DNA of 64,000 nt from Escherichia coli. GTDB lineage: Bacteria; Pseudomonadota; Gammaproteobacteria; Enterobacterales; Enterobacteriaceae. The stretch is taken from the NCBI RefSeq assembly GCF_022846255.1, contig NZ_AP025682.1, one strand, 5' to 3'. The position numbers were made by a program, and so were the translations under genes. Shown here one piece after another: positions 20 through 21,796 of this stretch; position 1 is the first letter of the stretch; each line of letters opens with the position of its first letter. A model generated the notes under the pieces. The model saw only the letters and a program-made list of their open reading frames with translations. It made no database searches and had not been told where the DNA came from.

Positions 20-1741
20 ATGCGCGCTTTGCTACCCTATCTGGCACTGTATAAACGTCATAAATGGATGTTAAGTCTTGGTATTGTGCTGGCAATTGTC
101 ACGCTGCTCGCCAGTATCGGTCTGTTGACACTTTCCGGCTGGTTCCTCTCCGCCTCAGCGGTAGCGGGGGTTGCCGGACTGTACAGCTTCAACTATATGC
201 TACCCGCTGCGGGCGTGCGTGGCGCAGCAATCACCCGTACTGCCGGGCGCTATTTTGAACGCCTGGTAAGTCACGATGCGACTTTCCGCGTGTTGCAGCA
301 TCTGCGCATTTACACCTTCAGCAAATTACTGCCCCTCTCCCCTGCCGGACTGGCGCGCTATCGTCAGGGCGAATTACTCAACCGCGTGGTGGCGGATGTT
401 GATACGCTCGATCATCTTTACCTGCGCGTTATCTCACCGCTGGTAGGCGCTTTTGTGGTGATTATGGTGGTGACAATCGGGTTAAGTTTCCTTGATTTCA
501 CCCTCGCCTTTACGCTGGGCGGCATTATGTTACTGACGCTTTTCCTGATGCCACCACTGTTTTATCGTGCGGGAAAAAGCACCGGGCAAAATCTGACTCA
601 TCTTCGCGGGCAGTATCGCCAACAACTGACGGCCTGGCTGCAAGGGCAAGCTGAGCTGACCATTTTTGGTGCCAGCGATCGTTATCGCACGCAGTTAGAG
701 AATACCGAAATTCAGTGGCTGGAAGCGCAACGTCGTCAATCTGAACTCACCGCATTATCGCAAGCGATAATGCTGCTCATTGGCGCGTTAGCGGTGATCC
801 TGATGCTGTGGATGGCGTCTGGCGGCGTTGGCGGCAATGCTCAACCCGGCGCGTTAATTGCCCTGTTTGTCTTCTGCGCGTTAGCCGCGTTTGAAGCACT
901 GGCACCAGTAACGGGTGCATTTCAGCATCTGGGGCAAGTCATTGCCTCTGCCGTACGGATCACTGACTTAACGGATCAAAAACCGGAAGTCACCTTCCCT
1001 GATACCCAAACTCGTGTTGCCGATCGCGTTTCGCTGACGTTACGGGATGTTCAGTTCACTTATCCGGAGCAATCCCAACAGGCACTTAAAGGGATTTCTC
1101 TTCAGGTAAACGCCGGGGAACATATAGCGATTCTCGGGCGAACCGGATGCGGCAAATCAACACTGTTACAACTGCTGACCCGCGCATGGGACCCGCAACA
1201 AGGCAAGATTTTGCTTAACGATAGCCCCATAGCCAGCCTGAATGAAGCGACTCTACGACAGACCATCAGCGTTGTGCCACAGCGAGTGCATCTGTTTAGC
1301 GCCACGCTGCGTGATAATCTGTTACTCGCCTCACCTGGCAGTAGTGATGAGGCTCTGGCGGAGATCTTACGTCGCGTTGGTCTGGAGAAGCTGCTCGAGG
1401 ATGCAGGTCTCAACAGTTGGTTAGGTGAAGGCGGACGCCAGCTCTCCGGTGGTGAACTGCGCCGTCTGGCTATCGCCCGTGCGCTGTTACATGATGCGCC
1501 TCTGGTATTGCTGGATGAACCTACAGAAGGCTTAGATGCCACAACCGAAAGTCAGATCCTTGAATTGCTTGCAGAAATGATGCATGAGAAAACGGTGTTA
1601 ATGGTCACCCATCGACTTCGCGGACTCTCTCGTTTCCAACAAATAATAGTGATGGACAACGGGCAAATTATTGAGCAAGGTACTCACGCAGAACTGCTTG
1701 CCAGACAGGGGCGTTATTACCAGTTTAAGCAGGGTTTGTAA
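20..1741 (+). CDS. cydC: ABC transporter CydC (cysteine/glutathione exporter, ATP-binding/permease fusion)
   Basis: 573-aa ORF with N-terminal transmembrane region and C-terminal ABC ATPase motifs (GRTGCGKST Walker A, LSGGELRR signature); position upstream of aat/infA matches recalled K-12 order. Confidence 0.9.
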   Translation: MRALLPYLALYKRHKWMLSLGIVLAIVTLLASIGLLTLSGWFLSASAVAGVAGLYSFNYMLPAAGVRGAAITRTAGRYFERLVSHDATFRVLQHLRIYTFSKLLPLSPAGLARYRQGELLNRVVADVDTLDHLYLRVISPLVGAFVVIMVVTIGLSFLDFTLAFTLGGIMLLTLFLMPPLFYRAGKSTGQNLTHLRGQYRQQLTAWLQGQAELTIFGASDRYRTQLENTEIQWLEAQRRQSELTALSQAIMLLIGALAVILMLWMASGGVGGNAQPGALIALFVFCALAAFEALAPVTGAFQHLGQVIASAVRITDLTDQKPEVTFPDTQTRVADRVSLTLRDVQFTYPEQSQQALKGISLQVNAGEHIAILGRTGCGKSTLLQLLTRAWDPQQGKILLNDSPIASLNEATLRQTISVVPQRVHLFSATLRDNLLLASPGSSDEALAEILRRVGLEKLLEDAGLNSWLGEGGRQLSGGELRRLAIARALLHDAPLVLLDEPTEGLDATTESQILELLAEMMHEKTVLMVTHRLRGLSRFQQIIVMDNGQIIEQGTHAELLARQGRYYQFKQGL

Positions 1742-1782
1742 GCTATTATTGAACGATCCGACTTGCGTGGAGTTTTGCGGTC

Positions 1783-2487
1783 ATGCGCCTGGTTCAGCTT
1801 TCTCGCCATTCAATAGCCTTCCCTTCCCCGGAAGGCGCATTACGTGAGCCTAACGGCCTGCTGGCACTGGGGGGCGATCTTAGCCCTGCGCGCCTGTTAA
1901 TGGCTTACCAGCGTGGTATTTTTCCGTGGTTTTCTCCAGGTGACCCCATCCTCTGGTGGTCGCCCGATCCCCGCGCGGTGCTTTGGCCTGAATCACTGCA
2001 TATCAGCCGTAGTATGAAGCGATTTCATAAACGCTCGCCCTATAGTGTCACGATGAATTACGCTTTTGGTCAGGTCATTGAAGGCTGTGCCAGCGATCGC
2101 GAAGAAGGAACCTGGATCACGCGTGGCGTGGTCGAAGCCTACCATCGCCTTCACGAACTCGGTCATGCCCACTCTATTGAAGTCTGGCGTGAAGATGAGC
2201 TTGTCGGCGGTATGTACGGCGTGGCCCAGGGAACGCTATTTTGTGGCGAGTCCATGTTCAGCCGGATGGAAAATGCGTCTAAAACGGCGCTTCTGGTATT
2301 CTGTGAGGAATTTATCGGTCATGGCGGTAAGCTTATCGACTGCCAGGTCCTTAACGATCACACAGCGTCGCTTGGTGCCTGCGAAATTCCCCGCCGGGAT
2401 TACCTTAATTATCTCAATCAAATGCGCCTCGGACGATTGCCGAATAATTTCTGGGTACCACGGTGCTTGTTTTCACCACAAGAATGA
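1783..2487 (+). CDS. aat: leucyl/phenylalanyl-tRNA--protein transferase
   Basis: 234-aa ORF; size and position between cydC and infA match recalled K-12 Aat. Confidence 0.88.
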
Positions 2488-2494
2488 ATGTTTT

Positions 2495-2523
2495 CGGCAC
2501 ATTTCTCCCCAGAGTGTTATAAT
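2495..2523 (+). promoter_or_regulatory. candidate sigma70 promoter with extended -10 (TGtTATAAT at 2515-2523) upstream of infA
   Basis: sequence motif read directly; function inferred. Confidence 0.3.
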
Positions 2524-2768
2524 TGCGGTCGCAGAGTTGGTTACGCTCATTACCCCGCTGCCGATAAGGAATTTTTCGCGTCAGGTAACGCCCATCGTTT
2601 ATCTCACCGCTCCCTTATACGTTGCGCTTTTGGTGCGGCTTAGCCGTGTGTTTTCGGAGTAATGTGCCGAACCTGTTTGTTGCGATTTAGCGCGCAAATC
2701 TTTACTTATTTACAGAACTTCGGCATTATCTTGCCGGTTCAAATTACGGTAGTGATACCCCAGAGGAT

Positions 2769-2990
<222 letters not shown>

Positions 2991-3031
2991 TTGTTTTACC
3001 GCCTGATGGGCGAAGAGAAAGAACGAGTAAA

Positions 3032-3056
3032 AGGTCGGTTTAACCGGCCTTTTTTG
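3032..3056 (+). terminator. rho-independent terminator candidate downstream of infA
   Basis: hairpin AGGTCGG-TTTAA-CCGGCCT followed by TTTTT. Confidence 0.5.
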
Positions 3057-3102: not shown

Positions 3103-4152
3103 TTTGAAAACTGCCTGTACGGCAGTGAACAGCGCCCGCTTTTTTACCGCGTCAGCGCAGCGTTTCTAAGCTGCCTGTACGGCAGTGAACTCCCTGATTC
3201 AGTTGCGCTCCCCGACGAGCTGTTTCTAAGCTGCCTGTACGGCAGTGAACCGTTGGCGTTTCGCGGCAACAGGTTTTTCAATTTTCTAAGCTGCCTGTAC
3301 GGCAGTGAACGTAGTTTTGATTCCAGCGATAACTGCCTATTTATTTCTAAGCTGCCTGTACGGCAGTGAACGTAGTTTTGATTCCAGCGATAACTGCCTA
3401 TTTATTTCTAAGCTGCCTGTACGGCAGTGAACGATCAGGCCCGGCTTTCCCCACACGTTCGTATTTTCTAAGCTGCCTGTACGGCAGTGAACCGCCTGCC
3501 ATTCAACCTGCAAATAGTTTTCGATTTCTAAGCTGCCTGTACGGCAGTGAACGAACTGTGGCACGAGGTTGCAGGCGTAAGACTTTTCTAAGCTGCCTGT
3601 ACGGCAGTGAACGCCATCTTTGAATATAACGCCCCGATTGTGATTTTCTAAGCTGCCTGTACGGCAGTGAACCCCTACCGTTTTAATAAATGGGATTTGC
3701 ATTATTTCTAAGCTGCCTGTACGGCAGTGAACGCTGAGGTGTTTACAATGCGTGCCGTGCTGGTTTTCTAAGCTGCCTGTACGGCAGTGAACTCTGTTTT
3801 TCGTCAGCAGGATTAAACCAGGCATTTCTAAGCTGCCTGTACGGCAGTGAACTCTCATCAATTACGGGTTCGTTGGCTGGATCTTTTCTAAGCTGCCTGT
3901 ATGGCAGTGAACGTCTTCTGCGCATCCGTACCACTCACCAATGATTTCTAAGCTGCCTGTATGGCAGTGAACTTAATCGGTAACGTTGCTCTAATTCCCC
4001 CTCTTTTCTAAGCTGCCTGTATGGCAGTGAACCCAGCGAGAATTGAGGCTGTTTGCCGTGTGCTTTTCTAAGCTGCCTGTATGGCAGTGAACATAAACGC
4101 GCGCAGGTTGTTGAGGTGCTCGAGTTTCTAAGCTGCCTGTATGGCAGTGAAC
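3103..4152 (-). CRISPR. CRISPR array 1, type I-F repeat; 18 repeats / 17 spacers
   Basis: 28-bp unit TTTCTAAGCTGCCTGTACGGCAGTGAAC on the + strand (reverse complement of the I-F consensus GTTCACTGCCGTACAGGCAGCTTAGAAA) at 60-bp period; repeat starts 3103, 3163, 3223, 3283, 3344, 3405, 3465 ... 4125; spacers 32 bp except a duplicated 33-bp spacer; degenerate terminal repeat at 3103-3130 marks the leader-distal end. Confidence 0.97.
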
Positions 4153-4400
4153 TGGAATAATAGCAGACTATCCGATTGATTTACTGTTAAAACTTACAAA
4201 ATCGCAGATTCAAACCCTTTTTCCAGACTTCAAAACAGAAATAAACAAAATCAATGAGTTACATTTCGCCCTAAAAAAAGGGTCGATTTGGTATTTCTTC
4301 AATCTCATATTTTCTGCATAGCTTTTGATAAACAATTGACCAGAACACATACGGTCATAATCTCCGTCCCGCGAACAGCGTGTTCATTGCGTAACCAAAC
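4153..4400 (-). promoter_or_regulatory. putative CRISPR array 1 leader (AT-rich)
   Basis: AT-rich sequence abutting the conserved end of the array; the degenerate repeat is at the opposite end; promoter not mapped. Confidence 0.45.
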
Positions 4401-4423
4401 AAATCAATCTATATAAATTCTTC

Positions 4424-4452
4424 TTGACCGTTTCACTCCAACTCCCTATAGT
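4424..4452 (+). promoter_or_regulatory. candidate sigma70 promoter of tRNA-Ser (TTGACC -35, 17-bp spacer, TATAGT -10, GC-rich discriminator)
   Basis: motifs read directly, about 45 bp upstream of the tRNA 5' end. Confidence 0.5.
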
Positions 4453-4495
4453 AGCGCCCCGTTGCCACCTATGAGGTCTGGCAGCAAAACAATTT

Positions 4496-4583
4496 GGTGA
4501 GGTGTCCGAGTGGCTGAAGGAGCACGCCTGGAAAGTGTGTATACGGCAACGTATCCGGGGTTCGAATCCCCGCCTCACCGCCA
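4496..4583 (+). tRNA. serW: tRNA-Ser (anticodon GGA)
   Basis: 88-nt sequence GGTGAGGTGTCCGAGTGGCTGAAGGAGCACGCCTGGAAAGTGTGTATACGGCAACGTATCCGGGGTTCGAATCCCCGCCTCACCGCCA; long variable arm, CUGGAAA anticodon loop, encoded CCA. Confidence 0.93.
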
Positions 4584-4596
4584 TCTTTAAAGAAGA

Positions 4597-4624
4597 GCTC
4601 GTACGAAAGTACGGGCTTTTTTTT
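4597..4624 (+). terminator. rho-independent terminator downstream of tRNA-Ser
   Basis: hairpin GCTCGTAC-GAAA-GTACGGGC followed by a T8 tract. Confidence 0.55.
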
Positions 4625-4642
4625 CGCATTGATGCACCTTAA

Positions 4643-4677
4643 ATAAAAAACACGTACTTCCTCTTCGAAAGTACGTG
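4643..4677 (-). terminator. terminator candidate for the fimbrial operon (minus strand)
   Basis: perfect 8-bp inverted repeat CACGTACT/AGTACGTG; on the minus strand it is followed by TTTTTTTATTT. Confidence 0.45.
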
Positions 4678-4704: not shown

Positions 4705-5718
4705 CTAGTCGTAGGATACGGCAAATATGGCTTTGCTTTGGACTTCTCCAGGCTGTAGTGCTTCCTCCTTCACGCGGACATATTTCGCGGTAATCGGGAA
4801 GGTGTACTGATTCTCAATGGCCGCCATTTTAGTTAGTTTGTTCATCAGAGTATCACCCAGCTTTAACGGTGTTGTTGCGTTACCATTATAAATCTGGAAC
4901 CCAACCCCCTTAGCACCATTAAGCGATGTGTTTTTCAGAATGGTTCCACTATCATCCCATTCACCGCGCGCAACTTTAAAAGTCACTGGATTAGTCGTGA
5001 CGTTATAAACACTGTCACAATTTAAAACCAGATCTATAGAACCTGATTTCGTGTTATTGGCAGATTGCATCTCACTTACCGTTGTTTCTGGCATTCTTAT
5101 TTCGTAAATCGGTTGCGAAAAACTACAGGTTGTGGGTTTGTGTTTGATGCTAAATTCTATATTCTGAGTGTAAGAAACATCACTATTTAGTCGCCCAGTA
5201 ACCCAACATAAAAGCCATGATATGATATTATTATTGCAAGAGTTATCTGTTAGTATGCTAATAGCGGGGCGCGGGATGGTTATCTTGTCGATATTGGTGG
5301 TTATAGTATGGTCTACTTTACTCGTTGGCCCAACATATTCTGCCTTAAGAGTGAACGGTTTGGTATTTATCACATCCTGAGTGTTATATTCTTTTGGAGA
5401 AGCACCCAAGGAGTCAGTTCCAGTAGAAACAGGAAAACTACTACTCTCAAGGTTAAATTTCATAAAAATTGATTTCCCCGAATCCGACTCTCTAAGTTCA
5501 ACGATATAATCTTTTAACGGTGTTGCATAATACATTTTATCGCTTGCTGCATTACATGTGAACGTATCGACTAAGTTTGTATGAATTACAGCCGTTACCG
5601 TATCTTGTGCCATATCCAGTTCTATCGTTTGGCTTGCTGTTGTATTAGGCCCCAAGGTACATTTAGCCTGCCCCAAAAAAGGCAAAGCCAGTAAAAACAA
5701 AAACCAATATTTCTTCAT
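4705..5718 (-). CDS. fimbrial tip adhesin-like protein (two-domain, FimH-like organisation)
   Basis: ORF 4705..5739; start trimmed to the ATG at 5718 preceded by AAAGGA; signal peptide MKKYWFLFLLALPFLGQA; C-terminal pilin-like end AIFAVSYD; last gene of a chaperone-usher operon. Confidence 0.7.
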   Translation of the reverse strand: MKKYWFLFLLALPFLGQAKCTLGPNTTASQTIELDMAQDTVTAVIHTNLVDTFTCNAASDKMYYATPLKDYIVELRESDSGKSIFMKFNLESSSFPVSTGTDSLGASPKEYNTQDVINTKPFTLKAEYVGPTSKVDHTITTNIDKITIPRPAISILTDNSCNNNIISWLLCWVTGRLNSDVSYTQNIEFSIKHKPTTCSFSQPIYEIRMPETTVSEMQSANNTKSGSIDLVLNCDSVYNVTTNPVTFKVARGEWDDSGTILKNTSLNGAKGVGFQIYNGNATTPLKLGDTLMNKLTKMAAIENQYTFPITAKYVRVKEEALQPGEVQSKAIFAVSYD

Positions 5719-5729
5719 AAACAAATCCT

Positions 5730-8222
5730 TTAACGACAAATATAAACTTTATTCTCATCAATAACGTTATCAAAGGTAATAGTGCAGAATTGTTCCTGCT
5801 GTTTATTAACCGAGACGCGAATCGACGCGGGAACATCATTGGTGCGAATAAATATCCGACTTCCCTGTCCTACTAAGCCCACATTATTGCCACTTTCATC
5901 TTCAACCTCATAACCAAACGGCAACGGAGAGCCATCAGGTCGTTGGGAGATGAAATACCAGGGCTTGCGTTTATCAGTCTCAAACTGCGTCATCACTACC
6001 GCACCACGATAAGGAACGGTGTTTTTACGGTTACCCAGTAGCGCCACATCGCTTTTACTGTCGGCAATATCCAACATCAACGTATTTTCACGATACGGCG
6101 TCAGGTTGTCATAAATAGCGTAGCCTCTGCTATCCGTGGTCAAGTAACGATATCCCTGCACCGCAGCCCCCTCCAGCCCAGGTGCTTTGACAATGGCAAA
6201 CGTATCGGAAAGTCTGGGAGCCAGTGCCACCCCGTCCGACCACGCGACGAAACCGCCTTGAATATTACCGCTAACCTGTTGATATCTTTTCGACTGGCTA
6301 TAGCTGCCACCAATAGTCGCCAATGGCGCACGCCAGGTCAGGTTTCCACCTGCTGTTGTTTCGCTGCCCTGGTGTTGATGGCTCAAGTTTGCCCCGTAGC
6401 TGAACTGATCGCGGCTCCCCGCTACACCGCTGAGGCTGGTATTATTCGACCGATAGCCGTCTTTATCAAAAGTGGTCGAGTTAGAAACAAATAAATCTCG
6501 TCGTTTTTCAGTGATTCCATCGCCCCACGAGAAGGGAATTGAGAAATATAAGTTAATGCGTCTATCTTCGCGGTTATCTTCGTCGTAGGTCTGGCTAACA
6601 GACAAGGTATAACTAAGGCGTTCCCAGGAGTTCGAATAGCTGAGTTGATAATCTTTCCCTGTCCCGCTGCGTTCCCAATAATCCCGCCATTGACCGCTGA
6701 CCGACAGATATCCCCAATTTTCCGGTAATGACTGGTTTATATTTACAGAAAAGCTGTTCTTACGACCAAAATCGTACTGATAATAGTCGGCGATATCATA
6801 AACTGAGTCATCTTCTCGATTATAACTTTTCCTGTTATTTGCCCTCACGTGATCGTTAAAAGTACGATAATCTCGAGAAGAATAACGCCAGGCCGCCAGC
6901 GAAAATTGCGTTCCACTTTGAGAGAGATATTTGTTCCACGCAATCTGATAACTTTGACCATTAAACACATCACCGTTATCTTGTTCACTGTGGGAATGGG
7001 TAAAATCAACAGATACCGCACCAATCGGTGTATTCCATCCCGTGCCGAGAACAAACGATGAGTAATTATCAGACAACTGCGTGCCAGCATAGAGAGTCAG
7101 CAAATTATTAAGGCCATACTGATAGCTTCCCTGAATAAAATCTGACTGATCGCTGGCTCCCTCAATACGGCTACGTCCGACAGCAAATTCATATTTCGAA
7201 ACGCCCGGTTGCAACATATTTGGTACCGATGAATAAGGTACACGATAACGCGACACCGAACCGTCAGCTTCTTTAACGGTAACTTCCAGATCGGCACCAC
7301 CACCTGCAAGTTGCAAATCATCAATGGCGAATGGACCTGGCGGAACTTCTTTCTGGTAAACCACAAAGCCATTTTGTTCGATAGTGACAAGTGCGTTACT
7401 TTGGGCAACACCACGCACCACAGGCGTAAAATTCTGTTTAGAGTTCGGCAACATCTGCATATCGCGCCAAAGGCGTACACCGCGAAAACGCACGGAGTCA
7501 AAAACATCAGAACCGGTATACATTTCACCAGCACGCAATGTGCCAAGAATATGTGGAATTCCGCGCTCCAGATATAACGTGTTACTCTTCCATTTACCGC
7601 TGTTATCGTCACTTTTCGTATAATTGGCATTTGAATGCAACTGCCAGCCCAGCAGATTCAAACCACTATTCAGATTTAAATAGCTACTTTTATTATCTCC
7701 TCCGTGCTTATAATTACTGTAATACTGACTGGCATAATAAGAAGTATATAATGCGTTAATCCCACGATCCCATGCCTCAGGTGGAACATATCCGCGTTCA
7801 TACTCAACAACATAGGCCTGGGGTACACTCAACTTCAGGTTAAAATGCCCAATATCATAGTCAACGCTACCTCCCTGTACTGCATCCCGAAGAGGTACGC
7901 ATTCTACGCCTTTATCAATATTAATTCCTTCAGTGAGGATACCTATTTGCTTTAACTGCTCCCAAGATAAACATGTCGCATCCGGATCATCTTTAATGTC
8001 GACATTATAGTGTCCGCGCCACTGATTATTCAGGTAAACATCCATATCATAGATACCTGGCATCGGCTTATCACTATCAATATGATAGTCAGAAATTTTT
8101 TCCCCATTTAATCCGCCAATCATAAAATGGGTGTCAAATGTTTCATCTTCCGCCCATGCAAGCGACGTTGCCAACACCGACAGGATAGCCAGCGTAATAG
8201 AATTAAGTTTAGACATAATCAA
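5730..8222 (-). CDS. fimbrial outer-membrane usher protein
   Basis: 830-aa ORF with signal peptide; size and position after the chaperone are typical of PapC/FimD-family ushers. Confidence 0.9.
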   Translation of the reverse strand: MIMSKLNSITLAILSVLATSLAWAEDETFDTHFMIGGLNGEKISDYHIDSDKPMPGIYDMDVYLNNQWRGHYNVDIKDDPDATCLSWEQLKQIGILTEGINIDKGVECVPLRDAVQGGSVDYDIGHFNLKLSVPQAYVVEYERGYVPPEAWDRGINALYTSYYASQYYSNYKHGGDNKSSYLNLNSGLNLLGWQLHSNANYTKSDDNSGKWKSNTLYLERGIPHILGTLRAGEMYTGSDVFDSVRFRGVRLWRDMQMLPNSKQNFTPVVRGVAQSNALVTIEQNGFVVYQKEVPPGPFAIDDLQLAGGGADLEVTVKEADGSVSRYRVPYSSVPNMLQPGVSKYEFAVGRSRIEGASDQSDFIQGSYQYGLNNLLTLYAGTQLSDNYSSFVLGTGWNTPIGAVSVDFTHSHSEQDNGDVFNGQSYQIAWNKYLSQSGTQFSLAAWRYSSRDYRTFNDHVRANNRKSYNREDDSVYDIADYYQYDFGRKNSFSVNINQSLPENWGYLSVSGQWRDYWERSGTGKDYQLSYSNSWERLSYTLSVSQTYDEDNREDRRINLYFSIPFSWGDGITEKRRDLFVSNSTTFDKDGYRSNNTSLSGVAGSRDQFSYGANLSHQHQGSETTAGGNLTWRAPLATIGGSYSQSKRYQQVSGNIQGGFVAWSDGVALAPRLSDTFAIVKAPGLEGAAVQGYRYLTTDSRGYAIYDNLTPYRENTLMLDIADSKSDVALLGNRKNTVPYRGAVVMTQFETDKRKPWYFISQRPDGSPLPFGYEVEDESGNNVGLVGQGSRIFIRTNDVPASIRVSVNKQQEQFCTITFDNVIDENKVYICR

Positions 8223-8230
8223 TCCCTGAT

Positions 8231-8911
8231 CTATTTGACGGTTTTTACTTTTTCACTCAAATAGTTCCCATGGTCATCAATCAGCGTAATTGTATATTGA
8301 TTGATGGCTAAGGCTGTGGTGATAGTCTTATCTGACCAGGGGGCTAATAACAACGTTTCGTGATTTATTTTTCCACTTCCCATCAACTCAGGAATAGTTA
8401 TCCAGTTTGCGGAGTTGTTTTTGATATTAATACCACCATTGGCATGCTTAATGCTCAGACGACGAAAACTTTCTTTATCTACGCCAGTAAGTCCCTCTGG
8501 GCGGTAGATAAATTTAATACGATTCTGCATGGCGAATTTTATGCCATTCTTATCTTCTAATTCGGGGCAATTAGGTGGGATGTCTAGCACATTAAGGAAG
8601 AATAGGCTTTCGCGATCTTTTGGTAGTGTATTCGCCAATTTTTTGATTTTGAGTTGTTGCCCTTCCCCCCCTTTTACGTGAGCGACCGGTGGCGTCAACA
8701 CAAACGGAACATGAATTTTTTCTGGGGGTAGACTGGTATCGCCATCATCAATCCATGACTGAACCAGGGCGCTACGATTACCTTCATTCATTAACTGAAC
8801 GGTAATCTCTTTTTTCTTTTCTGGATAAATAACACGAGTGCCGTAGATATAGACACCACTCCACGCAGGCGTGACTATGCCGGCCAGCAAGAAGGCTATT
8901 AATTTTTTCAT
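8231..8911 (-). CDS. fimbrial periplasmic chaperone (PapD/FimC family)
   Basis: 226-aa ORF with signal peptide MKKLIAFLLAGIVTPAWS; size and operon position. Confidence 0.88.
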   Translation of the reverse strand: MKKLIAFLLAGIVTPAWSGVYIYGTRVIYPEKKKEITVQLMNEGNRSALVQSWIDDGDTSLPPEKIHVPFVLTPPVAHVKGGEGQQLKIKKLANTLPKDRESLFFLNVLDIPPNCPELEDKNGIKFAMQNRIKFIYRPEGLTGVDKESFRRLSIKHANGGINIKNNSANWITIPELMGSGKINHETLLLAPWSDKTITTALAINQYTITLIDDHGNYLSEKVKTVK

Positions 8912-8964
8912 TAAACAATCCTTGTTTGAGAAATCGGCGACCGAAGCCGCCGATAAACACGATA

Positions 8965-9513
8965 TTAATCTGTCACGACAGTCATTGTCAGAGCAGAGTT
9001 AACCGGGCCAGCAGTCACCGCATCACCTGATTGCGCGTATTTCGCACTGAAATTTAGTGTATATTCATTAGAGCTGTTTTTTTCTAACTCAATACTTTTA
9101 TCACCGTCAATCTGTTGAGATTGCCCATCTGCACTCTCATAGTAGACAGCAAAACCAGCACCATTTGGGTTTGCCACAGTATTAATGGTGATATCGCTAC
9201 GATTTGCATCAAACTGACTTCTGGAAAACGTAATTCTGGGAGTCTCATCTCCTGTACATTTGACCGTCAGCGGTACAGTTGTTTTATTTGAATAACCATC
9301 ATAAATATAACCAGCGCTCTTACCATCAAATTGATCAGCACCAATATCGTTCATAGCAATAGTAGCCTGGCTATTTCCGATAAATTGACAAGTAGTTCCA
9401 ACCACATTACCGGTAATAACTAACTCACCCTGTTCACTCCCCTCCTCTGCAAAAGCCCCTGCACTCATAAAAAGAGAAGATAATACTGCAACTGCAATAA
9501 TTGAACGTTTCAT
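8965..9513 (-). CDS. fimbrial major subunit (type 1 pilin-like)
   Basis: 182-aa ORF with signal peptide ending AFA, paired Cys residues, first gene of the operon. Confidence 0.85.
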   Translation of the reverse strand: MKRSIIAVAVLSSLFMSAGAFAEEGSEQGELVITGNVVGTTCQFIGNSQATIAMNDIGADQFDGKSAGYIYDGYSNKTTVPLTVKCTGDETPRITFSRSQFDANRSDITINTVANPNGAGFAVYYESADGQSQQIDGDKSIELEKNSSNEYTLNFSAKYAQSGDAVTAGPVNSALTMTVVTD

Positions 9514-9892: not shown

Positions 9893-10447
9893 TCAAAACC
9901 AGGGAATAGTGGCGGTTGCGCTTAATCCGTAACTACTAAATTCCCCTTTAACCGGTTCAGTAAGCAAATCACCATGACGGATAAACAGCTTGAACTGCTG
10001 CTGACTCGACAAACTATTCATATTAAGAAAGGGTAAATCGGTCCGCTGTTCAGCCTGCGTCGCCAGTCGCTCAATCGCCTGTTCTTCAGTTAGCCAGCCT
10101 TTTTTCACTGAACGCCTTAACAGACGCTGAGGGTTACTTTTTACCTGTACACGACTTACGACTCGCCAGCCTTTAATTTCAGGTACTAGCGTGACAGGCG
10201 AACATTGGCAGTAATCAGTAAGCCCTTTACGCCACGTAGAGGCTTCAAGTTCTTGCAATGCGGGGGCACTGCCGTGCAAGCGTAAACGCGCTCCCGGCGT
10301 AACATTCACGTCCGGGAAACTCACGCCGATATCACCTTGCCCTCTTGCACCTAATGCCCGATGCAATTTGGCAAATAACGCCGCCATCAACATTTCGCTC
10401 GAAAATTCAGGATCTGGCAGAACGCGGATCTCAAGGTAGTGATCCAT
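9893..10447 (-). CDS. cas6f: Cas6f / Csy4 crRNA endoribonuclease
   Basis: ORF 9893..10489 trimmed to MDHYLEIRVLPDPEF..., the recalled Csy4 N-terminus; AGGAG RBS 7 nt upstream of the ATG at 10447. Confidence 0.92.
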   Translation of the reverse strand: MDHYLEIRVLPDPEFSSEMLMAALFAKLHRALGARGQGDIGVSFPDVNVTPGARLRLHGSAPALQELEASTWRKGLTDYCQCSPVTLVPEIKGWRVVSRVQVKSNPQRLLRRSVKKGWLTEEQAIERLATQAEQRTDLPFLNMNSLSSQQQFKLFIRHGDLLTEPVKGEFSSYGLSATATIPWF

Positions 10448-10457
10448 TGGCAGCTCC

Positions 10458-11459
10458 TTATTCCGATTTCTCACCAAAGACACCGCCACGGATCAGCACA
10501 GCCATCACGTAGCGCTGCTGATCAACGTCTGGTTTCATCCCTTTAGTCACCCAATTGTCCAGTAAGGTATAAAAGTCGAGTTTTTCTTTCGGTTGACGGC
10601 AGGCCACACCGCGACTGGTTACAGAACCGTAAGGTTCCACGGCTATAGCCCCCAATTCATCAACCTTTGGATGCCAGGTATCAATGGTACGTAAAGCATT
10701 GCCAATCTTCTGAGAGTGAATACCGGCAATGCCAGCCACCTGGTATAACACGCGACTTTTACTACTGTTGCTGTCGAGTACCAGCTCCTGCGACGGAAAA
10801 ACTTCTTGCCCGGCACCAAGACGAACCTGCGCTTCAACGGTAAGCATCACCCACTCTTTTGCGCTTAATCCTTGCTCTATAATGGCCGCCAGCTGCGTGA
10901 CCGCTGCCTGTCCCTGGTCAAATTGACGTAAAGAGAAGTCATGGCTGTTAAAAGTCCAGGAAGTGTCGTTAGCAGTAACTTTCACCTGGATCTGCTCAGC
11001 ACCAATGCGGTTGCGCCACAGAAAACGACCATTTGCCAGATTCAGCGCATAGCGAAGCGCCAGCTCTTTAAAGCCATGTTCGCTGATGTAACCTTCAATG
11101 ACCCCGGAAAGCGCCTCCTGGTAAGCCATATCATTACATACTGACGGTGTGGATAAATTACCCAGCACACGCAGCGTAAACACCACCTTTAACGTATCCG
11201 CATCTACCGGAAGCGAAGCCACATCCACCCGTTGCAGGTTAGCTTTTTGGATTTCAGCATCCAGTTTTGTGGAGTCACTGGTAATCGTATTTTTCAAGCG
11301 ATTAGAGATAGTTCCGCGAACCGCTTTCTCCTGAATCTCAATGGGTTGCCATACATTTCCTTGCCAGTTACCTGCGTACATTACCGCGTCAGATGTTGCC
11401 AGTTTGCGCTCAAATGCCAGTACCGATGCCGTTTTTATTACTACAGGAGCCTTTGCCAT
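10458..11459 (-). CDS. cas7f: Cas7f / Csy3 (Csy complex backbone)
   Basis: 333-aa ORF; size and operon position between csy2 and csy4. Confidence 0.9.
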
Positions 11460-11469
11460 AATTATGTCC

Positions 11470-12393
11470 TTATTCTAAATCGTCATATTCATTAAAAGTA
11501 AAATCATCACCAGCTGGCATTGCCGAGCAATAGTAGCCAGTGTCCGTTGTGCGGTAACGCCACATCAGCGGTTGCAAGTCAGTTATGCGATGTAATCCGC
11601 GCCATTCGCCGATGCCATATACCGCTTCGGCAAAAGCAAATGGCGTCACGGTGTCGCGCGCATTTTCAACTTCACCGGGTGCGTAAACAGGAGAAATGCG
11701 TTGGTAGCCACACATTAACGGTACCAGGAAACCAGGCATTGGCTTCGGCTGATATGTCCATTTTGCGCTGTTGTCTTCTGCCGGAGATTCGGCCTGATAT
11801 TTAACGGCAGCAAAATCAAGCCAGGCATCCAGCAATGAGATGTCGGGATGTTGTTGGTGATGTTCAGCCAGCCATTCACTGCGATCGTAAAGCGCATAGC
11901 CAGGCATTAAACGCCAGATGATTTTACGCAGTTGCTTTTCATCTTCAGGCGCATGAAAAAGCTGTGGTTCGCGCATGTCAACAATGCTGCCGCCCGCCAG
12001 TTTGTGGCTCTGGCAGAGCATTTTCAGATGGTCACACAGAGCTTTTCTGCCATATTCACCATTGGTGATTTCCCCTTCACATTCAATGAGCAAAGATACC
12101 GTCAGATGCATACGGCCCTCTTCATTGAACGAAGCGGTTTTACCTTCTCTGGTTAGTGGGTTACGGGTGAGAGCAAACTGAAAATACCGCCCAGAGCTAT
12201 ATGCCTGAATATGTTGTTCATGGCTAACTACCGCGCAACCGTCAAAACTTACGCCAAAATCATCCGCCACTTTGCGAGAAAGCGCATGAACATAGCCGAG
12301 AAAATGGGTCATCGCCGGGAATCCCCAGGTCAACCCGGAGACGGCGTTAGCGTTTTCGATACGTATATGGGGTAACAAGAGCAGATAACTCAT
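11470..12393 (-). CDS. cas5f: Cas5f / Csy2
   Basis: 307-aa ORF; 4-bp overlap with csy1; operon position. Confidence 0.88.
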
Positions 12394-13697
12394 TTCAGCG
12401 CCTCCTGCAAAACAGCTTCCATTTCACGCATCCGTTGAGCGAACAGAGACTGGCTGCGCCATTCTCTTTGCTCGACAGCGCCCACGTCGAAACTGGATTT
12501 TTTCAGGCGATAGTTGAGCCAGCGCGCAAAATCATCGGCCACCGCCCCCTGCCAGTCGTTTTTCTCCCGCTCCAGTTTGAAAACCTCATCGGACAGGCTT
12601 CGCCACGGATCCAGCCAAAGCTGCTGATGGCGAGGTAAATCTTGCGATTGCGCTGACCATCCCTGCCATTTTTCTTGCTGAAAAGCGGATGCCTGCATGA
12701 ACAGCAGATCGATCAACTCATCAATATATTTCGCCCGCGCAGTTCGGATATGAACATTATTTATGTCAACCTTCAACAGGTAAGTCATCCGGGCGATAAT
12801 GCCCGAAGCCGCCCTATTGAAATCGCCGCGTAAGGCAAAAATACTGAGCATGTTTTGTGGTGCGCGATCCAGCGTCGCCCAGGTAGGCGGCATTGACGGC
12901 AACAGCCAGACGCGCCCCCCACGCACACTATTGAGCAATGAAATATTTTGCGGTTTTGTGCCTCCGAAATGCATTTCAGCAAGATTCGGGAAACGAATAT
13001 CTGGCTGTGAGTGCCATTTACCTGCTTTGTGCGCTTCGCGAATGGCTTTCGATTCCTCACTAAAGCGCACGGCGGTTAGCTTTTCATACATCGCCTGCGC
13101 CAGTGAACTGGAAAACAGTGGGCATAAGAGGTGATAACCATCCGCAACAGGGAAATAGATTTGTTTTGCCAGTTTATGGCTGGCAGGCCGTCCAGTTGTC
13201 CATGCCTGGCTAAACCCAGCTACCCACTGCTCCAGTTGCGCTTTATCCTCTGCAAACGTACTTAATGCCTGATAATCACCACGCTTCAGGCTGGCAAGCA
13301 GTGAATCTCCGTTCACATCAGTTTGTAGCAACTTTGCGACGTCAAGTGCAGCGGCGTTACCAATCGCGTCAGTAGCGACATTCGCCAACGATGCCGTGTT
13401 TAAATAGCTTTCGTTAGCGGAGGTTTCCAGATAAAAGCTACTGGCTTTAGAATCACCATGACTGAATTTAGCGCCATGAGTGACTAATTTGATTTGCCCG
13501 GCACGCTTTGCCGCATCCGTTAACCAGTGACGAGGCAGGTAGCGTGCCTCGAGTTCCTGCCGCTCCTGAGCGATGACGCTGGCATCCTCGCCCTGTTCCA
13601 GTCGCTTTGTTGCTTCTTTTTCAAAGGCCTCGACTTTGGGTTGCCTTCGCGAAGCGATATAGTCAGTGATAAATTGTATTAGCGCCGTTTTTTCCAT
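12390..13697 (-). CDS. cas8f: Cas8f / Csy1 (large subunit)
   Basis: 435-aa ORF; AGGAG RBS upstream; operon position. Confidence 0.9.
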   Translation of the reverse strand: MEKTALIQFITDYIASRRQPKVEAFEKEATKRLEQGEDASVIAQERQELEARYLPRHWLTDAAKRAGQIKLVTHGAKFSHGDSKASSFYLETSANESYLNTASLANVATDAIGNAAALDVAKLLQTDVNGDSLLASLKRGDYQALSTFAEDKAQLEQWVAGFSQAWTTGRPASHKLAKQIYFPVADGYHLLCPLFSSSLAQAMYEKLTAVRFSEESKAIREAHKAGKWHSQPDIRFPNLAEMHFGGTKPQNISLLNSVRGGRVWLLPSMPPTWATLDRAPQNMLSIFALRGDFNRAASGIIARMTYLLKVDINNVHIRTARAKYIDELIDLLFMQASAFQQEKWQGWSAQSQDLPRHQQLWLDPWRSLSDEVFKLEREKNDWQGAVADDFARWLNYRLKKSSFDVGAVEQREWRSQSLFAQRMREMEAVLQEALK

Positions 13698-13940
13698 CTC
13701 GGCTCCTTTCGTTAATCCATCAAATTGAAGTTGCTCCCTGACTTCACTGAAAAATCTCCGTAGCCCAACCAGGCTTCAGTACAACGACGCATACAGCAAA
13801 AGGGACAACACCCGTGGTGATAATCATGGATAGCTCACCTAGAGGTATCTACGTTTTAATCTAGTAAAATCCATGCAATAACCAATAGTGATATTACCAT
13901 GCATGAAATATTTGCCACACAATGATTTAAAAACTAACAT

Positions 13941-14016
13941 TCACGCACTGCCGTTGGCAGCTTAGAAATAGAGGTATCTCCGGATACGGACTTGTAAACT
14001 GCCGTACAGGCAGCCC
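13941..14016 (+). repeat. two degenerate CRISPR repeat-like sequences in the cas3-csy1 intergenic gap, inverted relative to both arrays
   Basis: 13946-13968 CACTGCCGT-T-GGCAGCTTAGAAA (loop shortened from 5 to 3 nt); 13998-14014 ACTGCCGTACAGGCAGC (17-nt exact repeat core); consensus orientation is on the + strand, opposite to the arrays. Confidence 0.6.
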
Positions 14017-14024
14017 GCGCCCCT

Positions 14025-17000
14025 TCACGGGGCGCGGTACACACCTAACCAGGGGTGATAACGCCAGTCATCGACCACATCTTCTTCACTGACGGGTACT
14101 CTCACCTCAGCAAACTTTTCCCCAACGCTTGCTATCTCACAACCTTGCTTATCAGCTAAATTCAACAAAACGTGTTGGTAATCCATCACGCCCCAGCAAG
14201 CGACACCGCTGGCGCATCTCACCTCTTCTCGCCTGAAATTCCCTTGCGCTTTACGCTCGTTGTCGCCCGTACGGGAATAGAAACGCGCTTCGCTTTCTTC
14301 ATCATCCATATGCAGAAAAAATACCGCCTCCGGCAAAGGGGAATAACGAAATGGCGTCTGGCGCTGTATCCAGCCGTTCCAGCTTAGCGGTGCACGCCAC
14401 CATTGCGCCGCCACCACATGTTTGCTTTTACTGCTCATCAATTCGGCGGATAAACGACTATGTTCTAGCTCCGCCAGTTTGTTGGCATTATTGGCAGACA
14501 GGATCCGCGGCAAGGCGTTAATCGTCCGGTAGTCCGCGATCGGAATCAGTTCGCAAATATCGTGGCTATTCAGCAAGTGTTCTTTTGTTTCGAAACCAGG
14601 CTTACAAAATGCGGGGGCTTTTTTCTGCAATGATTTGATATTGCTACGCAAAATAACCAGATTCTCACTGGTCGGCACATTTCTACGGTGGCGCTGAATA
14701 CGTCCGGCAAATTGAATTATCGAACGCATGGAGCTTGGTTCGATAATTCCCCAATCCGCATCCCAGTCACGCCCCACTTCTATAACCGATGTCCCCAACA
14801 CCACAAACAGATGGTGCGATTCCGGACGGTTATGTAAGGCATCTGCGATATCTTCGTTGTTCCAGAAATCGAGTTCGTTATGACGGGTAAAAGCGCGGTC
14901 CAGTCGCTTCTCAATATCTGAACGCACCGCCAGCGGGTGTCGGGAGTGGTAAACACAATAATGAATACAAACATTTTCTGGTGAAGGAATGGCAATCAGG
15001 GCTTTGGTCACTGCAACCAGTGGATTGATATTCGCGAAGCGCACCAGGCCCAGCGAAACGGTTTTACCGCTTTCGTGTAGCTGGCGATGCGCCTGATGCA
15101 ACTTCAGCATTTGCGTATGCACCGTCTGGGCCACACTTTCGGTAACATCCTGGATTGCAACTGATGCAGATGAAATCGAAGCAACACGCCCGAAATGCAG
15201 CCGCTCTTTTTCAGCCAGCATTACCGCCCGCCTGGCAACAAATTTTGTATGCGCATCGCGAAAGGCCGCTCCATCGCTAATTTGCGTGGCATCAGCATCG
15301 TTTTCGTCAAACCAGGCACAGCAAATATTGACGGGCCTGCCGTTGGTACCACAAGACGCCTGCCACATTTTACGCCCGGCAAGATAAGCCGCGAACAGCG
15401 CCTGAATCAGGCCTGGCGGAAGCGTCGCCGAAGAGAGTAACACCCGCGTTCCCAGCATCCCGGCCCAGTTCATCAAACGACATACCGCATGAAGATCAGC
15501 AATATCAAAGTCGTCGGGTTCGTCGAGCACTAAATCGCTGGTTAACAGACGCAACATCGCCGGAAGCTGTTTCCCGCCACGCACACCCTCGGTCGCGGAA
15601 ATAAGATGATCAATTGTCGCGACCAGAATCGGCGCGCTCACTAACGCCTTAAGTTTGCTGTCATCCTTCAACCATTTTTCCAGCGCCCCGGTATGCAGGC
15701 TGCCTTCGTACTTAACGAACTGTTGCTCCTCTGCCGGCGACTCTTGCGAGGCACTTCCACAATCATTGTCTATTTTTTCCTGCTGCCAGAGCTGTTTAAC
15801 TGCCGCCGAACCAATTAATACCGCCAGCTCATCCTCACCGAGTCCAAGTCGACTACGCAGAGCATCGCCGGTTTGCAAAGTCAGCGTACGCAATCCCAGC
15901 GCGACGGTAAAACGGCACCCTTCCCGCTCATCGGCAAGCGCATACATAATGCGGGCGTTCGCAAAGGTTTTACCGCACCCCGTCGAGGCCATATTAACGC
16001 CGAAAAATCCCTCCTCCCGGCTTCGTTCACGTAACGCTCGCGCCACATCCGAGGCTTTATCCTGCCAGCGATATTTCGCATCTGTAGCTCGCTGGCTAAA
16101 ACCTTTATGTCGGGCAATTGCCGGAAGAGAAGCCCGTGTGCGCATCAGCTGCCGCCCAAGCAAAAACGCATGATGTGCGACGCCGACCAGGTGCTCGTCC
16201 ACCCGTTGTTTGAGTGCGCCACTTTGCCTATCGCTATTTGCCCAGACGATATAATCCGGCTCCTGCCATTTTTGCTGCGCATCGCTTGAGGAATAGTAAT
16301 GATCGGCAAGCATCAGGCAAAAACGCGCCATATGTGAGGGGAACAACTGTTCCATCAGCCCGTATGTCTTTAAACCGAGCGCGTTACTTGCCCGGCGGGA
16401 AATCTGATGTGCTTTTTCTCGCCAGCTAGCACTCTGAAGCGGTGTTCCAGCCGGAAATTGCCAGACGTGCGCAAAATCCTGTTGTAACCAGTCATCTCTG
16501 CGGTGGTTAACGGCATTCCAGTCAGCATTAAGTTGCCTTTCCAGCCAACTTTCACACCCTTTGCAAGATTGTTCCGGTTGTGGCGAAAGATTCTCCGGAA
16601 TTCGATGATGGGAAAGGATCAGCCAACCTACCGTTTTGGCTAGCGGTTGCAGCGAAGTAAATGGGCTATCTGAAAATTGAGGCGTGTCTTTTAGCAGGCG
16701 TTCCAGAATCGCAGATTCATCATCTGCCGTAAGTTCGCCAAGCTTCGCCAGCCACACATCGTCGGGCCGATCACCGACAAACGCCTGAAAGAGCCGCAGT
16801 GAGATCCATTCATGTCGGTATGGTTGATAACTGCGGGCATTCTTTTGGGTCAGGCTTTGCTGAAAGCTGCGTCCGGATTTTCCAAAATCATGAAATAACC
16901 CGGCGATGGCTGCCAGCAGCGCAATGCTTTCCGCACATTGCCAGCGGTTTTCTTCCTTGTTCACCAGGCTGGTTTGCGTTGTGCGATTTGTGGGAACGCG

Positions 17001-17258
17001 CCCCTGAGCATTAAAACGACGAATATTACCCACAATCCACATCAACTCAATTTGTCCATTCTTCTTTAGCCAGTGACATGCCACTGCGGTATTTCGCCTG
17101 GCAGTTTTGCGCAGTAAACGGCGGAGTGTATTAACGCCTTCCAGAGTAATCACTGTTTGCCATGCGGCATCACCTGTACGTTCAGCAAACTGATCAATAA
17201 TACGGCAGCTTTCCACGCGGGCGTTTTTTGTACAGCGCGAGATAATCAGAACATTCAT
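14025..17258 (-). CDS. cas3: Cas2-Cas3 fusion (Cas3f: N-terminal Cas2, HD nuclease, helicase)
   Basis: 1077-aa ORF; N-terminus MNVLIISRC...FAERTGDAAWQT resembles recalled I-F Cas2/3; HD motif LFHDFGK; 4-bp overlap with cas1. Confidence 0.95.
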   Translation of the reverse strand: MNVLIISRCTKNARVESCRIIDQFAERTGDAAWQTVITLEGVNTLRRLLRKTARRNTAVACHWLKKNGQIELMWIVGNIRRFNAQGRVPTNRTTQTSLVNKEENRWQCAESIALLAAIAGLFHDFGKSGRSFQQSLTQKNARSYQPYRHEWISLRLFQAFVGDRPDDVWLAKLGELTADDESAILERLLKDTPQFSDSPFTSLQPLAKTVGWLILSHHRIPENLSPQPEQSCKGCESWLERQLNADWNAVNHRRDDWLQQDFAHVWQFPAGTPLQSASWREKAHQISRRASNALGLKTYGLMEQLFPSHMARFCLMLADHYYSSSDAQQKWQEPDYIVWANSDRQSGALKQRVDEHLVGVAHHAFLLGRQLMRTRASLPAIARHKGFSQRATDAKYRWQDKASDVARALRERSREEGFFGVNMASTGCGKTFANARIMYALADEREGCRFTVALGLRTLTLQTGDALRSRLGLGEDELAVLIGSAAVKQLWQQEKIDNDCGSASQESPAEEQQFVKYEGSLHTGALEKWLKDDSKLKALVSAPILVATIDHLISATEGVRGGKQLPAMLRLLTSDLVLDEPDDFDIADLHAVCRLMNWAGMLGTRVLLSSATLPPGLIQALFAAYLAGRKMWQASCGTNGRPVNICCAWFDENDADATQISDGAAFRDAHTKFVARRAVMLAEKERLHFGRVASISSASVAIQDVTESVAQTVHTQMLKLHQAHRQLHESGKTVSLGLVRFANINPLVAVTKALIAIPSPENVCIHYCVYHSRHPLAVRSDIEKRLDRAFTRHNELDFWNNEDIADALHNRPESHHLFVVLGTSVIEVGRDWDADWGIIEPSSMRSIIQFAGRIQRHRRNVPTSENLVILRSNIKSLQKKAPAFCKPGFETKEHLLNSHDICELIPIADYRTINALPRILSANNANKLAELEHSRLSAELMSSKSKHVVAAQWWRAPLSWNGWIQRQTPFRYSPLPEAVFFLHMDDEESEARFYSRTGDNERKAQGNFRREEVRCASGVACWGVMDYQHVLLNLADKQGCEIASVGEKFAEVRVPVSEEDVVDDWRYHPWLGVYRAP

Positions 17259-18244
17259 TGATCAGCCTTAGCCAGTGCCTGGGCAGTTTCCTGCAAAGAG
17301 GTGATCATGACATCCAGCGCATCCGTTTGTTGAAAGATATTGATGCAGCGTAGACGAAACTCCTGGGCATCTTCACCTGCCATCGCGGCGATAAATGCTT
17401 GCGGCATCACAAGGGCATCTTTAATCAGATCGGCAAGGTCAAAAACCAGCCCGCCGCGACGTGTTTTACCGTGCATTACTGCTAAACCGTGCGGGATCCC
17501 GGTTACCCACGCCGCCACTGCTGCCAGTCCATAAGCCAGATAATTCCCTTGATCGAGGAAGCGGTTGGCCATATCAATACCACCGCCCCGTTTTGCGCGA
17601 GTGAAATCGCCATACCCCACTGTTTGACTGACCATTTTGTATAACGCTTTAGTCAATTTGGCCTCTACGAGCATAAGCTGCGTATGGTTTTCTGCCGCGT
17701 CTATTTCTTCACGAGTACGATTCAGGAGGGTATGCAGCGCATTAACATCAGGTTGAAATGCGTGTTCACGCTGCATTTTCGAGCTGGACCAGTGCTTATC
17801 GATATGTGTCAGGCGGATTAACTGAAAACGTTTCGCGGCGGCAAGTCGTTTATCTTCAGCAAACCAAAAAGAAACCCACTGCTGGAGATACTCTGTAGGG
17901 CGATATTCACTTTGTGGGCTGAGCCAGGAGACATCAACATCCACTTCATTTGCCGAATACAGCGGCGTGCCATCCGTACCACAAAAGCCCACCATCACCC
18001 CGGCATGAGCAAATTCACGCATCGCCGCCTGAGTAACGGAAGTTCCCATTCCCAACATCAATGCCGTGGTATTCGCAATGGGGATATTCCAGTAGTACGA
18101 CTCTTTACCTTCGCTGGTGACATACTCCACCCGCCCACCATTCACCTGTACCCGGCATTTTTCCAGATAATAAATATTGGCGCGTTTGGAGTGGAGAATG
18201 GTTTTGAGATCGGAAGGCGTGAGGTAATTCGAAGACATAAACAC
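17255..18244 (-). CDS. cas1: Cas1 integrase (type I-F)
   Basis: 329-aa ORF; SDLKTILHSKRANIYYLEKCRVQVNGGRVEYV resembles recalled I-F Cas1. Confidence 0.95.
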   Translation of the reverse strand: MFMSSNYLTPSDLKTILHSKRANIYYLEKCRVQVNGGRVEYVTSEGKESYYWNIPIANTTALMLGMGTSVTQAAMREFAHAGVMVGFCGTDGTPLYSANEVDVDVSWLSPQSEYRPTEYLQQWVSFWFAEDKRLAAAKRFQLIRLTHIDKHWSSSKMQREHAFQPDVNALHTLLNRTREEIDAAENHTQLMLVEAKLTKALYKMVSQTVGYGDFTRAKRGGGIDMANRFLDQGNYLAYGLAAVAAWVTGIPHGLAVMHGKTRRGGLVFDLADLIKDALVMPQAFIAAMAGEDAQEFRLRCINIFQQTDALDVMITSLQETAQALAKADQ

Positions 18245-18409
18245 ATCCTGTGATTATTTTATATTTGAAGGTATTGGGCTTAGTACAGCATTGATTTATG
18301 TGCTGAAAATTGATTTCTGTCGCAATTATTACGATTGTTATTGTATGCTGAAGCTAATGGTTTGAAGTTGAGAGCGTCATGATATGACCAAACGTCTACC
18401 ATTATCGTA

Positions 18410-19277: not shown

Positions 19278-19425
19278 TCAAATACTACACGTTTAGCTCG
19301 TTGTTGATAAAGAAAAATCATCTCATTTTCCTGCTGCCACCCTTTTTTATTCTTACCTTCCAGCACCATTAATTATCAACAACTTACCTTCACCTCCAAA
19401 AATAGGGTTTTCACCGTTCCCCCCT
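19278..19425 (-). promoter_or_regulatory. putative CRISPR array 2 leader
   Basis: AT-rich sequence next to the conserved end of the array, between the array and the clpA terminator; promoter not mapped. Confidence 0.4.
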
Positions 19426-19464
19426 ACAAACAAAAAGTCCGTAACCTCTTTCGAGATTACGGAC
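19426..19464 (-). terminator. rho-independent terminator of clpA
   Basis: 8-bp stem GTCCGTAA/TTACGGAC; on the minus strand it is followed by a T-rich tract. Confidence 0.6.
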
Positions 19465-19489
19465 TTCACCAACCTACCTAACAATTAGA

Positions 19490-21766: not shown

Positions 21767-21796
21767 AGGCACCTCCCCCAATTTTTATGCCTGCAT

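Follow-up and report, generated by a model that had tools for sequence, protein, structure and literature searches.

The window, by which we mean the whole 64-kb stretch of DNA analysed here, is Escherichia coli DNA, and its cydC-aat-infA segment is 99.3% identical to K-12. It carries two CRISPR arrays, a set of cas genes and the tRNA gene serW in the following order:

20-1741, plus strand: cydC
1783-2487, plus strand: aat
2772-2990, plus strand: infA
3103-4152, minus strand: array 1, with 18 I-F repeats and 17 spacers (Rfam CRISPR-DR4; repeat families)
4153-4495: the interval between repeat 1 of array 1 and serW, 343 bp
4496-4583, plus strand: serW, tRNA-Ser(GGA), found by ARAGORN and by the Rfam tRNA model (52.2 bits)
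4705-9513, minus strand: a fimbrial operon
9893-18244, minus strand: cas6f, csy3, csy2, csy1, cas2-3 and cas1
about 18408-19277: array 2, followed by leader 2
19490-21781, minus strand: clpA

LF82, ECOR and other strains are known to carry a CRISPR-III (I-F) locus flanked by clpA and infA (PMC3506596, PMC3903273). The locus in the window is this one, and it comprises CRISPR4.1 and CRISPR4.2 together with the cas-F genes. It shares the gene order of the E. coli CRISPR-III locus and, as there, a leader adjoins each array. Since the CRISPR4.2 leader is the one that adjoins the cas-F genes (PMC3903273), array 1 corresponds to CRISPR4.2. The layout of leader, serW and cas6f is identical in LF82. 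Unlike the CRISPR-III loci of LF82 and ECOR, however, the window has a 5-kb fimbrial operon between serW and cas6f. The name serW does not occur in the two papers that were searched for it.

The fimbrial operon is of the chaperone-usher type (yehD-like), consists of four genes (4705-9513) and is located between serW and cas6f. Typical I-F-positive E. coli lack it and have cas6f ~110 bp from serW. It is present in Escherichia sp. E1V33, with 94% identity. Moreover, the same operon is found as IS1-flanked cargo in 35 E. coli genomes. Two of these records were looked at, one a plasmid with phage genes and the other a chromosome, and in both the cargo contains a 3' fragment of serW.

In the search with Rfam CRISPR-DR4, each of the 18 repeats of array 1 is assigned to the minus strand. 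The minus strand is thus the crRNA strand and the leader lies to the right of the array, a position with which the location of the degenerate trailer repeat at the opposite, left end agrees (3103-3130; 39.4 bits vs 50.1). Repeat 1, the leader-proximal repeat, occupies 4125-4152. The five rightmost repeats (3885-4152) have a C-to-T variant in common, which corresponds to a G to A change in the hairpin loop of the crRNA. This variant is not present in the older repeats of the array, and other strains carry a C in repeat 1. Five leader-proximal repeats with a common variant indicate at least four acquisitions after the mutation arose, and a cluster of variants at the right end is what is expected where new repeats copy the leader-proximal one. 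The pattern of repeat variants is indirect evidence that leader 1 directs polar spacer acquisition. Two further observations concern the array itself. A spacer-repeat unit at 3283-3404 is duplicated exactly (61-bp period, 100% identity), its spacer being 33 nt long instead of the usual 32 nt. In E. coli strain 8178, for which no CRISPR feature is annotated, the match to leader 1 begins only ~230 bp past infA, which suggests a minimal array 1 beside intact cas genes.

The first-pass annotation had described an AT-rich interval of ~340 bp between the newest repeat of array 1 and tRNA-Ser. This agrees with what we find, as the 343 bp have a GC content of 37.6%, compared to 50.5% for the window. 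A search of the interval with Rfam returned, above threshold, only the tRNA and the CRISPR repeats and no other RNA family. The part of the interval that adjoins the array contains the following elements:

4153-4288, minus strand: canonical type I-F leader, directly upstream of repeat 1 on the crRNA strand
4169-4181, minus strand: proximal IHF site, AATCAATCGGATA, with one mismatch to WATCAANNNNTTR
4213-4222, minus strand: proximal inverted repeat, AAAAAGGGTT
4249-4261, plus strand: distal IHF site, AATCAATGAGTTA, without mismatch to WATCAANNNNTTR
4273-4284, minus strand: distal inverted repeat, GACCCTTTTTTT, the inverted partner of 4213-4222

An nhmmer profile built from 92 I-F leaders from outside Escherichia matches positions 4288 to 4153 with an E-value of 3.1e-12. 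The sole other strong match of this profile in the window is leader 2 (19416 to 19280, E ~3e-12). To place the individual elements, we used a pattern search of ~100,000 species genomes, which yielded 106 stretches representing 98 distinct leaders; the groups they come from include Enterobacterales and Pseudomonas. Aligned on repeat 1, these leaders show conserved blocks at about -29 to -17, -70 to -61, -101 to -94 and -130 to -121. Conservation ends at -131 to -136, which corresponds to 4283-4288, and in the alignment of the 98 leaders there is none upstream of about -131. The proximal IHF site occupies the block atcAa...gtTa at about -29 to -17, and the distal inverted repeat is the block aCCcTTTTTT at -130 to -121. 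The proximal inverted repeat coincides with the block at -70 to -61, whose conservation is partly circular since the retrieval pattern included AAAGGGT.

Comparisons within Escherichia gave the same picture. Leader 1 and leader 2 are mostly unlike in overall sequence, yet the blocks are found at equal offsets in both, and they also align with the orphan leader of K-12. The two leaders have in common a junction motif TA(T/G)TATTnnA immediately before GTTCAC, an ATCAA core that is the proximal IHF site (4181-4169 in leader 1), AAAAAGGGT as the proximal inverted repeat and ACCCTTTTT as the distal one. Leader 1, leader 2 and the orphan leader of K-12 all carry AAAAAGGGTT unchanged. Perfect matches to WATCAANNNNTTR occur only 10 times in 128 kb; one of them, at 19374, is the equivalent of the distal IHF site in leader 2. 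Across eight Escherichia sequences none of the 17 sites of the distal IHF site is variable, and in leader 1 the two inverted repeats flank it. The proximal site, in contrast, departs from the IHF consensus by its one mismatch. Judged by its sequence, 4153-4288 is a standard type I-F CRISPR leader.

The arrangement resembles that of the P. aeruginosa I-F system, in which the Cas1-2/3-IHF integration complex makes use of two IHF sites and two inverted repeats in ~150 bp of folded DNA (bioRxiv 10.1101/2023.05.26.542337). As in the P. aeruginosa leader, a proximal IHF site, a proximal inverted repeat, a distal IHF site and a distal inverted repeat follow one another, with matching spacing, within ~133 bp of repeat 1, and the repeats belong to the same family, CRISPR-DR4. 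By analogy, IHF would bind the two leader sites and fold the DNA. The folded leader would then present its two inverted repeats to Cas1-Cas2/3, which would insert new spacers at repeat 1.

We then asked how often a leader of this type has a tRNA gene as its neighbour. Among the 98 leaders a tRNA gene lies within 1.2 kb upstream in only one, that of Escherichia sp. E1V33, where tRNA-Ser(GGA) again lies on the opposite strand at a distance of 343 bp. E. whittamii is colinear with the arrangement of leader and serW up to the end of the contig. Leader 1 itself is held by 240 E. coli genomes, of which 234 cover at least 80% of a query spanning 4151-4600. The layout is thus constant wherever leader 1 was found, that is in the 240 E. 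coli genomes, E. whittamii and Escherichia sp. E1V33, and it was not seen in any other I-F leader examined. In at least 14 loci of other genera cas6f is encoded on the same strand, with its stop codon 131-134 bp away from repeat 1. In many genera this stop codon and the distal inverted repeat of the leader that follows share bases (…TGG TTT TGA CCCTTTTTT). Compared to these canonical I-F loci, in which the overlap reads TGACCCTTTTTT, Escherichia departs from the common layout, since a 107-bp linker and an oppositely oriented serW unit, consisting of promoter, gene and terminator, lie between cas6f and the leader. The position of the leader beside serW is probably a lineage-specific accident of where serW lies in Escherichia, and not a general design of I-F systems.

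The remainder of the interval, and the sequence just beyond serW, are made up as follows:

4289-4395, no strand assigned: linker, 107 bp between the leader and the serW promoter
4396-4423, plus strand: AT-rich region upstream of the serW promoter, at the place that an UP element would take
4424-4452, plus strand: serW promoter, with TTGACC (4424-4429), a 17-bp spacer and TATAGT (4447-4452)
4453-4495, plus strand: GC-rich discriminator and 5' leader of the pre-tRNA, with AGCGCCCC after the -10 hexamer
4589-4624, plus strand: intrinsic terminator of serW, -20.4 kcal/mol (z=-5.1), with a tract of eight U behind the hairpin

The sigma-70 promoter sequence TTGACC-17-TATAGT, which had been proposed to fire rightward into the tRNA gene from 4424-4452, was borne out in place and orientation. 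It matches the consensus at 10 of 12 positions and its -10 hexamer ends 44 nt before the mature 5' end of the tRNA. Sites of equal quality occur only seven times in 128 kb, counting both strands, and the chance expectation for one at the right place and in the right orientation upstream of this tRNA gene is ~0.002. The hexamers are identical in K-12, and from the -35 to the -10 hexamer only one of 29 sites is variable across the eight Escherichia sequences. From the spacing after the -10 hexamer we infer a transcription start near 4459-4461. The 23 bases upstream of the -35 hexamer are 83% A+T, and beyond about -64 the sequence differs between I-F-positive and I-F-negative strains. Folding of the 5' leader of the pre-tRNA is no better than that of shuffled sequence (z=-1.4), so that no hairpin was recognized there.

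Promoters of stable RNAs that use sigma-70 typically have a GC-rich discriminator, examples being rrn P1 and tyrT. The serW promoter resembles these in its near-consensus hexamers, its 17-bp spacer, its discriminator containing GCGC and its AT-rich upstream region. By analogy with other stable-RNA promoters, it is predicted to be strong and subject to growth-rate control. The leader likewise has a counterpart in E. coli. The type I-E CRISPR2.1 leader is reportedly AT-rich, holds the array promoter and a single IHF site, and is silenced by H-NS. Leader 1 is similar to it in being AT-rich and in having an IHF site; CRISPR2.1 belongs to a different subtype and is not known to adjoin a tRNA gene. 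Thus, leader and serW promoter are both of known kinds, the locus is already in the literature, and their finding is in itself ordinary.

Conservation among E. coli genomes changes at 4396. From there rightward the sequence, which K-12 also has, finds a match at ~93-94% identity in 5425 of 5426 complete E. coli genomes. The linker, in contrast, is seen only in Escherichia strains that have the I-F system and is absent from K-12 and from ~95% of E. coli. In K-12 the serW promoter is the same, but the 90 bp before it are unrelated. These limits of homology indicate that 4153-4395 is accessory and goes with the I-F system, whereas 4396-4495 belongs to the core genome. E. whittamii and Escherichia sp. 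E1V33 have a colinear linker, and segment 4303-4356 of the linker shows nine variable sites in 54 bp across the eight Escherichia sequences. As it is fairly conserved within Escherichia, the linker may have a function. We also considered that it might be a remnant of the 3' end of cas6f, to which it shows no similarity, or that leader or linker might derive from mobile-element DNA, for which the plasmid and phage collections gave no match.

K-12 has no array between infA and serW. Its orphan I-F array lies between serW and clpA (1740-1819 of the K-12 stretch) and consists of two repeats, one spacer and a homologue of leader 2. As nothing is left in K-12 on the infA side of serW, the I-F system was not lost through one repeat-to-repeat deletion across this gene.

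As the first-pass annotation had pointed out, array 1 is read leftward and the tRNA gene rightward, and this holds; both units must start in or next to the interval. For the array, a strict scan for minus-strand promoters found nothing in the leader, and relaxed scans gave only matches of 8/12. No convincing sigma-70 promoter was found on the minus strand of 4153-4288, the best match there being an extended -10 element that lacks a -35 hexamer. The candidates considered for the start of array 1 are:

4157-4165, minus strand: TGcTATTAT, a candidate for an extended -10 element, whose end is 4 nt from repeat 1
4386 to 4357, minus strand: TGAACA-18-GATTAT, a weak candidate for the crRNA promoter (8/12), with a putative start near 4350
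4436 to 4406, minus strand: weak candidate, the only other two-hexamer match on this strand in the interval

A transcript from the -10 candidate at 4165-4157 would begin inside repeat 1. Leader 2 carries TAGTAT at the equal offset, and hexamers resembling a -10 element are enriched at -12, being found in 29% of the 98 leaders compared to a background of 2.9%, an enrichment that may instead reflect constraints on the leader-repeat junction. We regard TGcTATTAT as a putative -10 element of the crRNA promoter. The two-hexamer candidates both lie near or within the upstream region of serW. Two further possibilities were tried and rejected. A promoter position common to all I-F leaders did not emerge, since only 29 of the 98 match at 9/12 or better and these are without strong clustering. 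Moreover, the distal inverted repeat and distal IHF site, which in some genera form a promoter-like TTGACC-17-TATAAC, are degenerate here (TCGACC, TGTAAC) and lack the critical final T.

Readthrough into the leader from the right is unlikely, since such transcripts would have to pass two hairpin terminators, run antisense across serW and meet serW transcription head-on. One of these terminators is a minus-strand hairpin with a U-run at 4677 to 4651 (-15.6 kcal/mol). The other is the serW terminator, whose hairpin has -9.3 kcal/mol when read on the minus strand and is the weaker barrier. In P. aeruginosa each of the intergenic regions that precede the I-F arrays gives reporter expression (PMC13142298). 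Together with the ~133 bp of canonical leaders and the fact that leader 2 has only ~150 bp before the clpA terminator, this favours a promoter within the short leader. Most likely, therefore, the crRNA promoter lies within or close to 4153-4288. The papers available to us gave no usable mapped start for serW or for E. coli I-F arrays.

We consider the interval to be a mosaic in which two independent units, the leader and the serW unit, point apart, are joined by the linker and owe their juxtaposition to the lineage; we assign this reading a probability of about 0.6. The anatomy of the interval, the boundaries of its segments and their conservation and distribution are observed directly in the genomes compared. 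That the two units act independently, and which site starts crRNA synthesis, the extended -10 element at 4165-4157 being one candidate, is what we infer from them. According to this reading, serW has an ordinary core-genome sigma-70 promoter region (4396-4495) directed rightward into the tRNA, and the linker (4289-4395) keeps it apart from the leader. As leader and serW diverge back to back, their transcripts cannot collide. The conserved elements of the leader are ~136 bp or more away from the -35 hexamer of serW, and this separation makes a direct overlap of regulatory elements unlikely. An overlap with serW elements would arise only if one of the weak candidates at 4386 to 4357 or 4436 to 4406 were real.

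The first of these two candidates is the basis of an alternative in which the array and serW form a true divergent promoter pair. TGAACA-18-GATTAT would then be the crRNA promoter, with a start near 4350 and thus ~110 bp from the serW start. The AT-rich segment 4387-4423 would be the upstream region of both promoters, and RNA polymerase or Fis at serW could modulate the array with growth rate. That the candidate is one of only two minus-strand two-hexamer matches in the interval speaks for this, as does its variation across the eight Escherichia sequences, in which TGAACA and GATTAT are invariant while 11 of the 18 spacer positions vary. This pattern is promoter-like and suggestive, but not statistically compelling, since at the observed variability two invariant hexamers are expected by chance in ~10% of cases and the sample is small. 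A new promoter in the linker would also be plausible because the oppositely oriented serW unit separates the array from the csy operon. However, the match to the consensus is only 8/12, the spacer is 18 bp long and GC-rich, the segment is missing from canonical I-F leaders, and leader 2 does not have the room for an equivalent. We therefore hold a divergent pair to be doubtful.

A second alternative couples the two units without any common sites. Strong rightward transcription of serW, together with leftward transcription of the array, would keep the leader negatively supercoiled. This would help IHF to fold the leader and new spacers to be integrated, or the array promoter to melt. The geometry fits the twin-domain model, an established principle, in that the leader lies directly behind the serW promoter. 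Moreover, the arrangement is constant in all I-F-positive Escherichia examined, and leader 1 has seen the four or more recent acquisitions described above. On the other hand, ~97 other I-F leaders function without a tRNA neighbour, and array 1 is not consistently the larger of the two, with 17 spacers vs 14 in array 2 in the window, but 689 bp vs 808 bp in strain 504838. Taken together, we regard an effect of supercoiling as quite unlikely.

Both alternatives bear on the proposal that the serW promoter couples the array to growth rate, be it via supercoiling or via the common segment 4387-4423 with a crRNA promoter newly arisen in the linker (4386 to 4357). Such coupling would tune leader folding, spacer integration or crRNA synthesis. 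We consider it very unlikely, and an influence of the serW promoter on the leader is at present speculation that has proximity behind it. Least probable of all is that the interval lacks a promoter for array 1, which would then be either essentially silent or reached by readthrough from the fimbrial or csy operon antisense across serW, a possibility that fits with the failure to find a strong minus-strand promoter and with the canonical abutment of leader and same-strand cas6f, where csy readthrough could occur, but that is at odds with the terminators and head-on serW transcription described above, with the recent polar growth of array 1, and with the large arrays of LF82, a strain whose CRISPR4.2 has 22 spacers and whose system has been reported as constitutively active (PMC3506596).

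Returning to the mosaic of independent units, the present value of the analysis is annotational, as it provides exact coordinates for the motifs of an I-F leader in E. coli. In addition, it places a boundary between accessory and core DNA at 4396 and defines the departure of Escherichia from the layout in which the leader abuts cas6f. If coupling were true after all, growth rate would act via a housekeeping tRNA promoter on CRISPR adaptation or on the supply of crRNA in I-F-positive E. coli, which would be a new kind of regulatory input into CRISPR.

Finally, the comparison with K-12 revealed differences along the locus. From serW to the 3' end of clpA the identity is ~95-96% (window positions 4415-4630 and 19249-20663), lower than the 99.3% found over 1644-3054 in the cydC-aat-infA segment. 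This difference suggests that the flanks of the I-F locus represent an old divergent haplotype. serW itself differs from K-12 by a compensated change in the first pair of the T-stem, which is C49:G65 instead of G:C (positions 4555 and 4572). The C49:G65 allele is invariant in the eight aligned I-F-positive Escherichia sequences. It is found in 249 E. coli records, a number close to the 240 genomes that hold leader 1, which indicates that this serW allele travels with the I-F haplotype.
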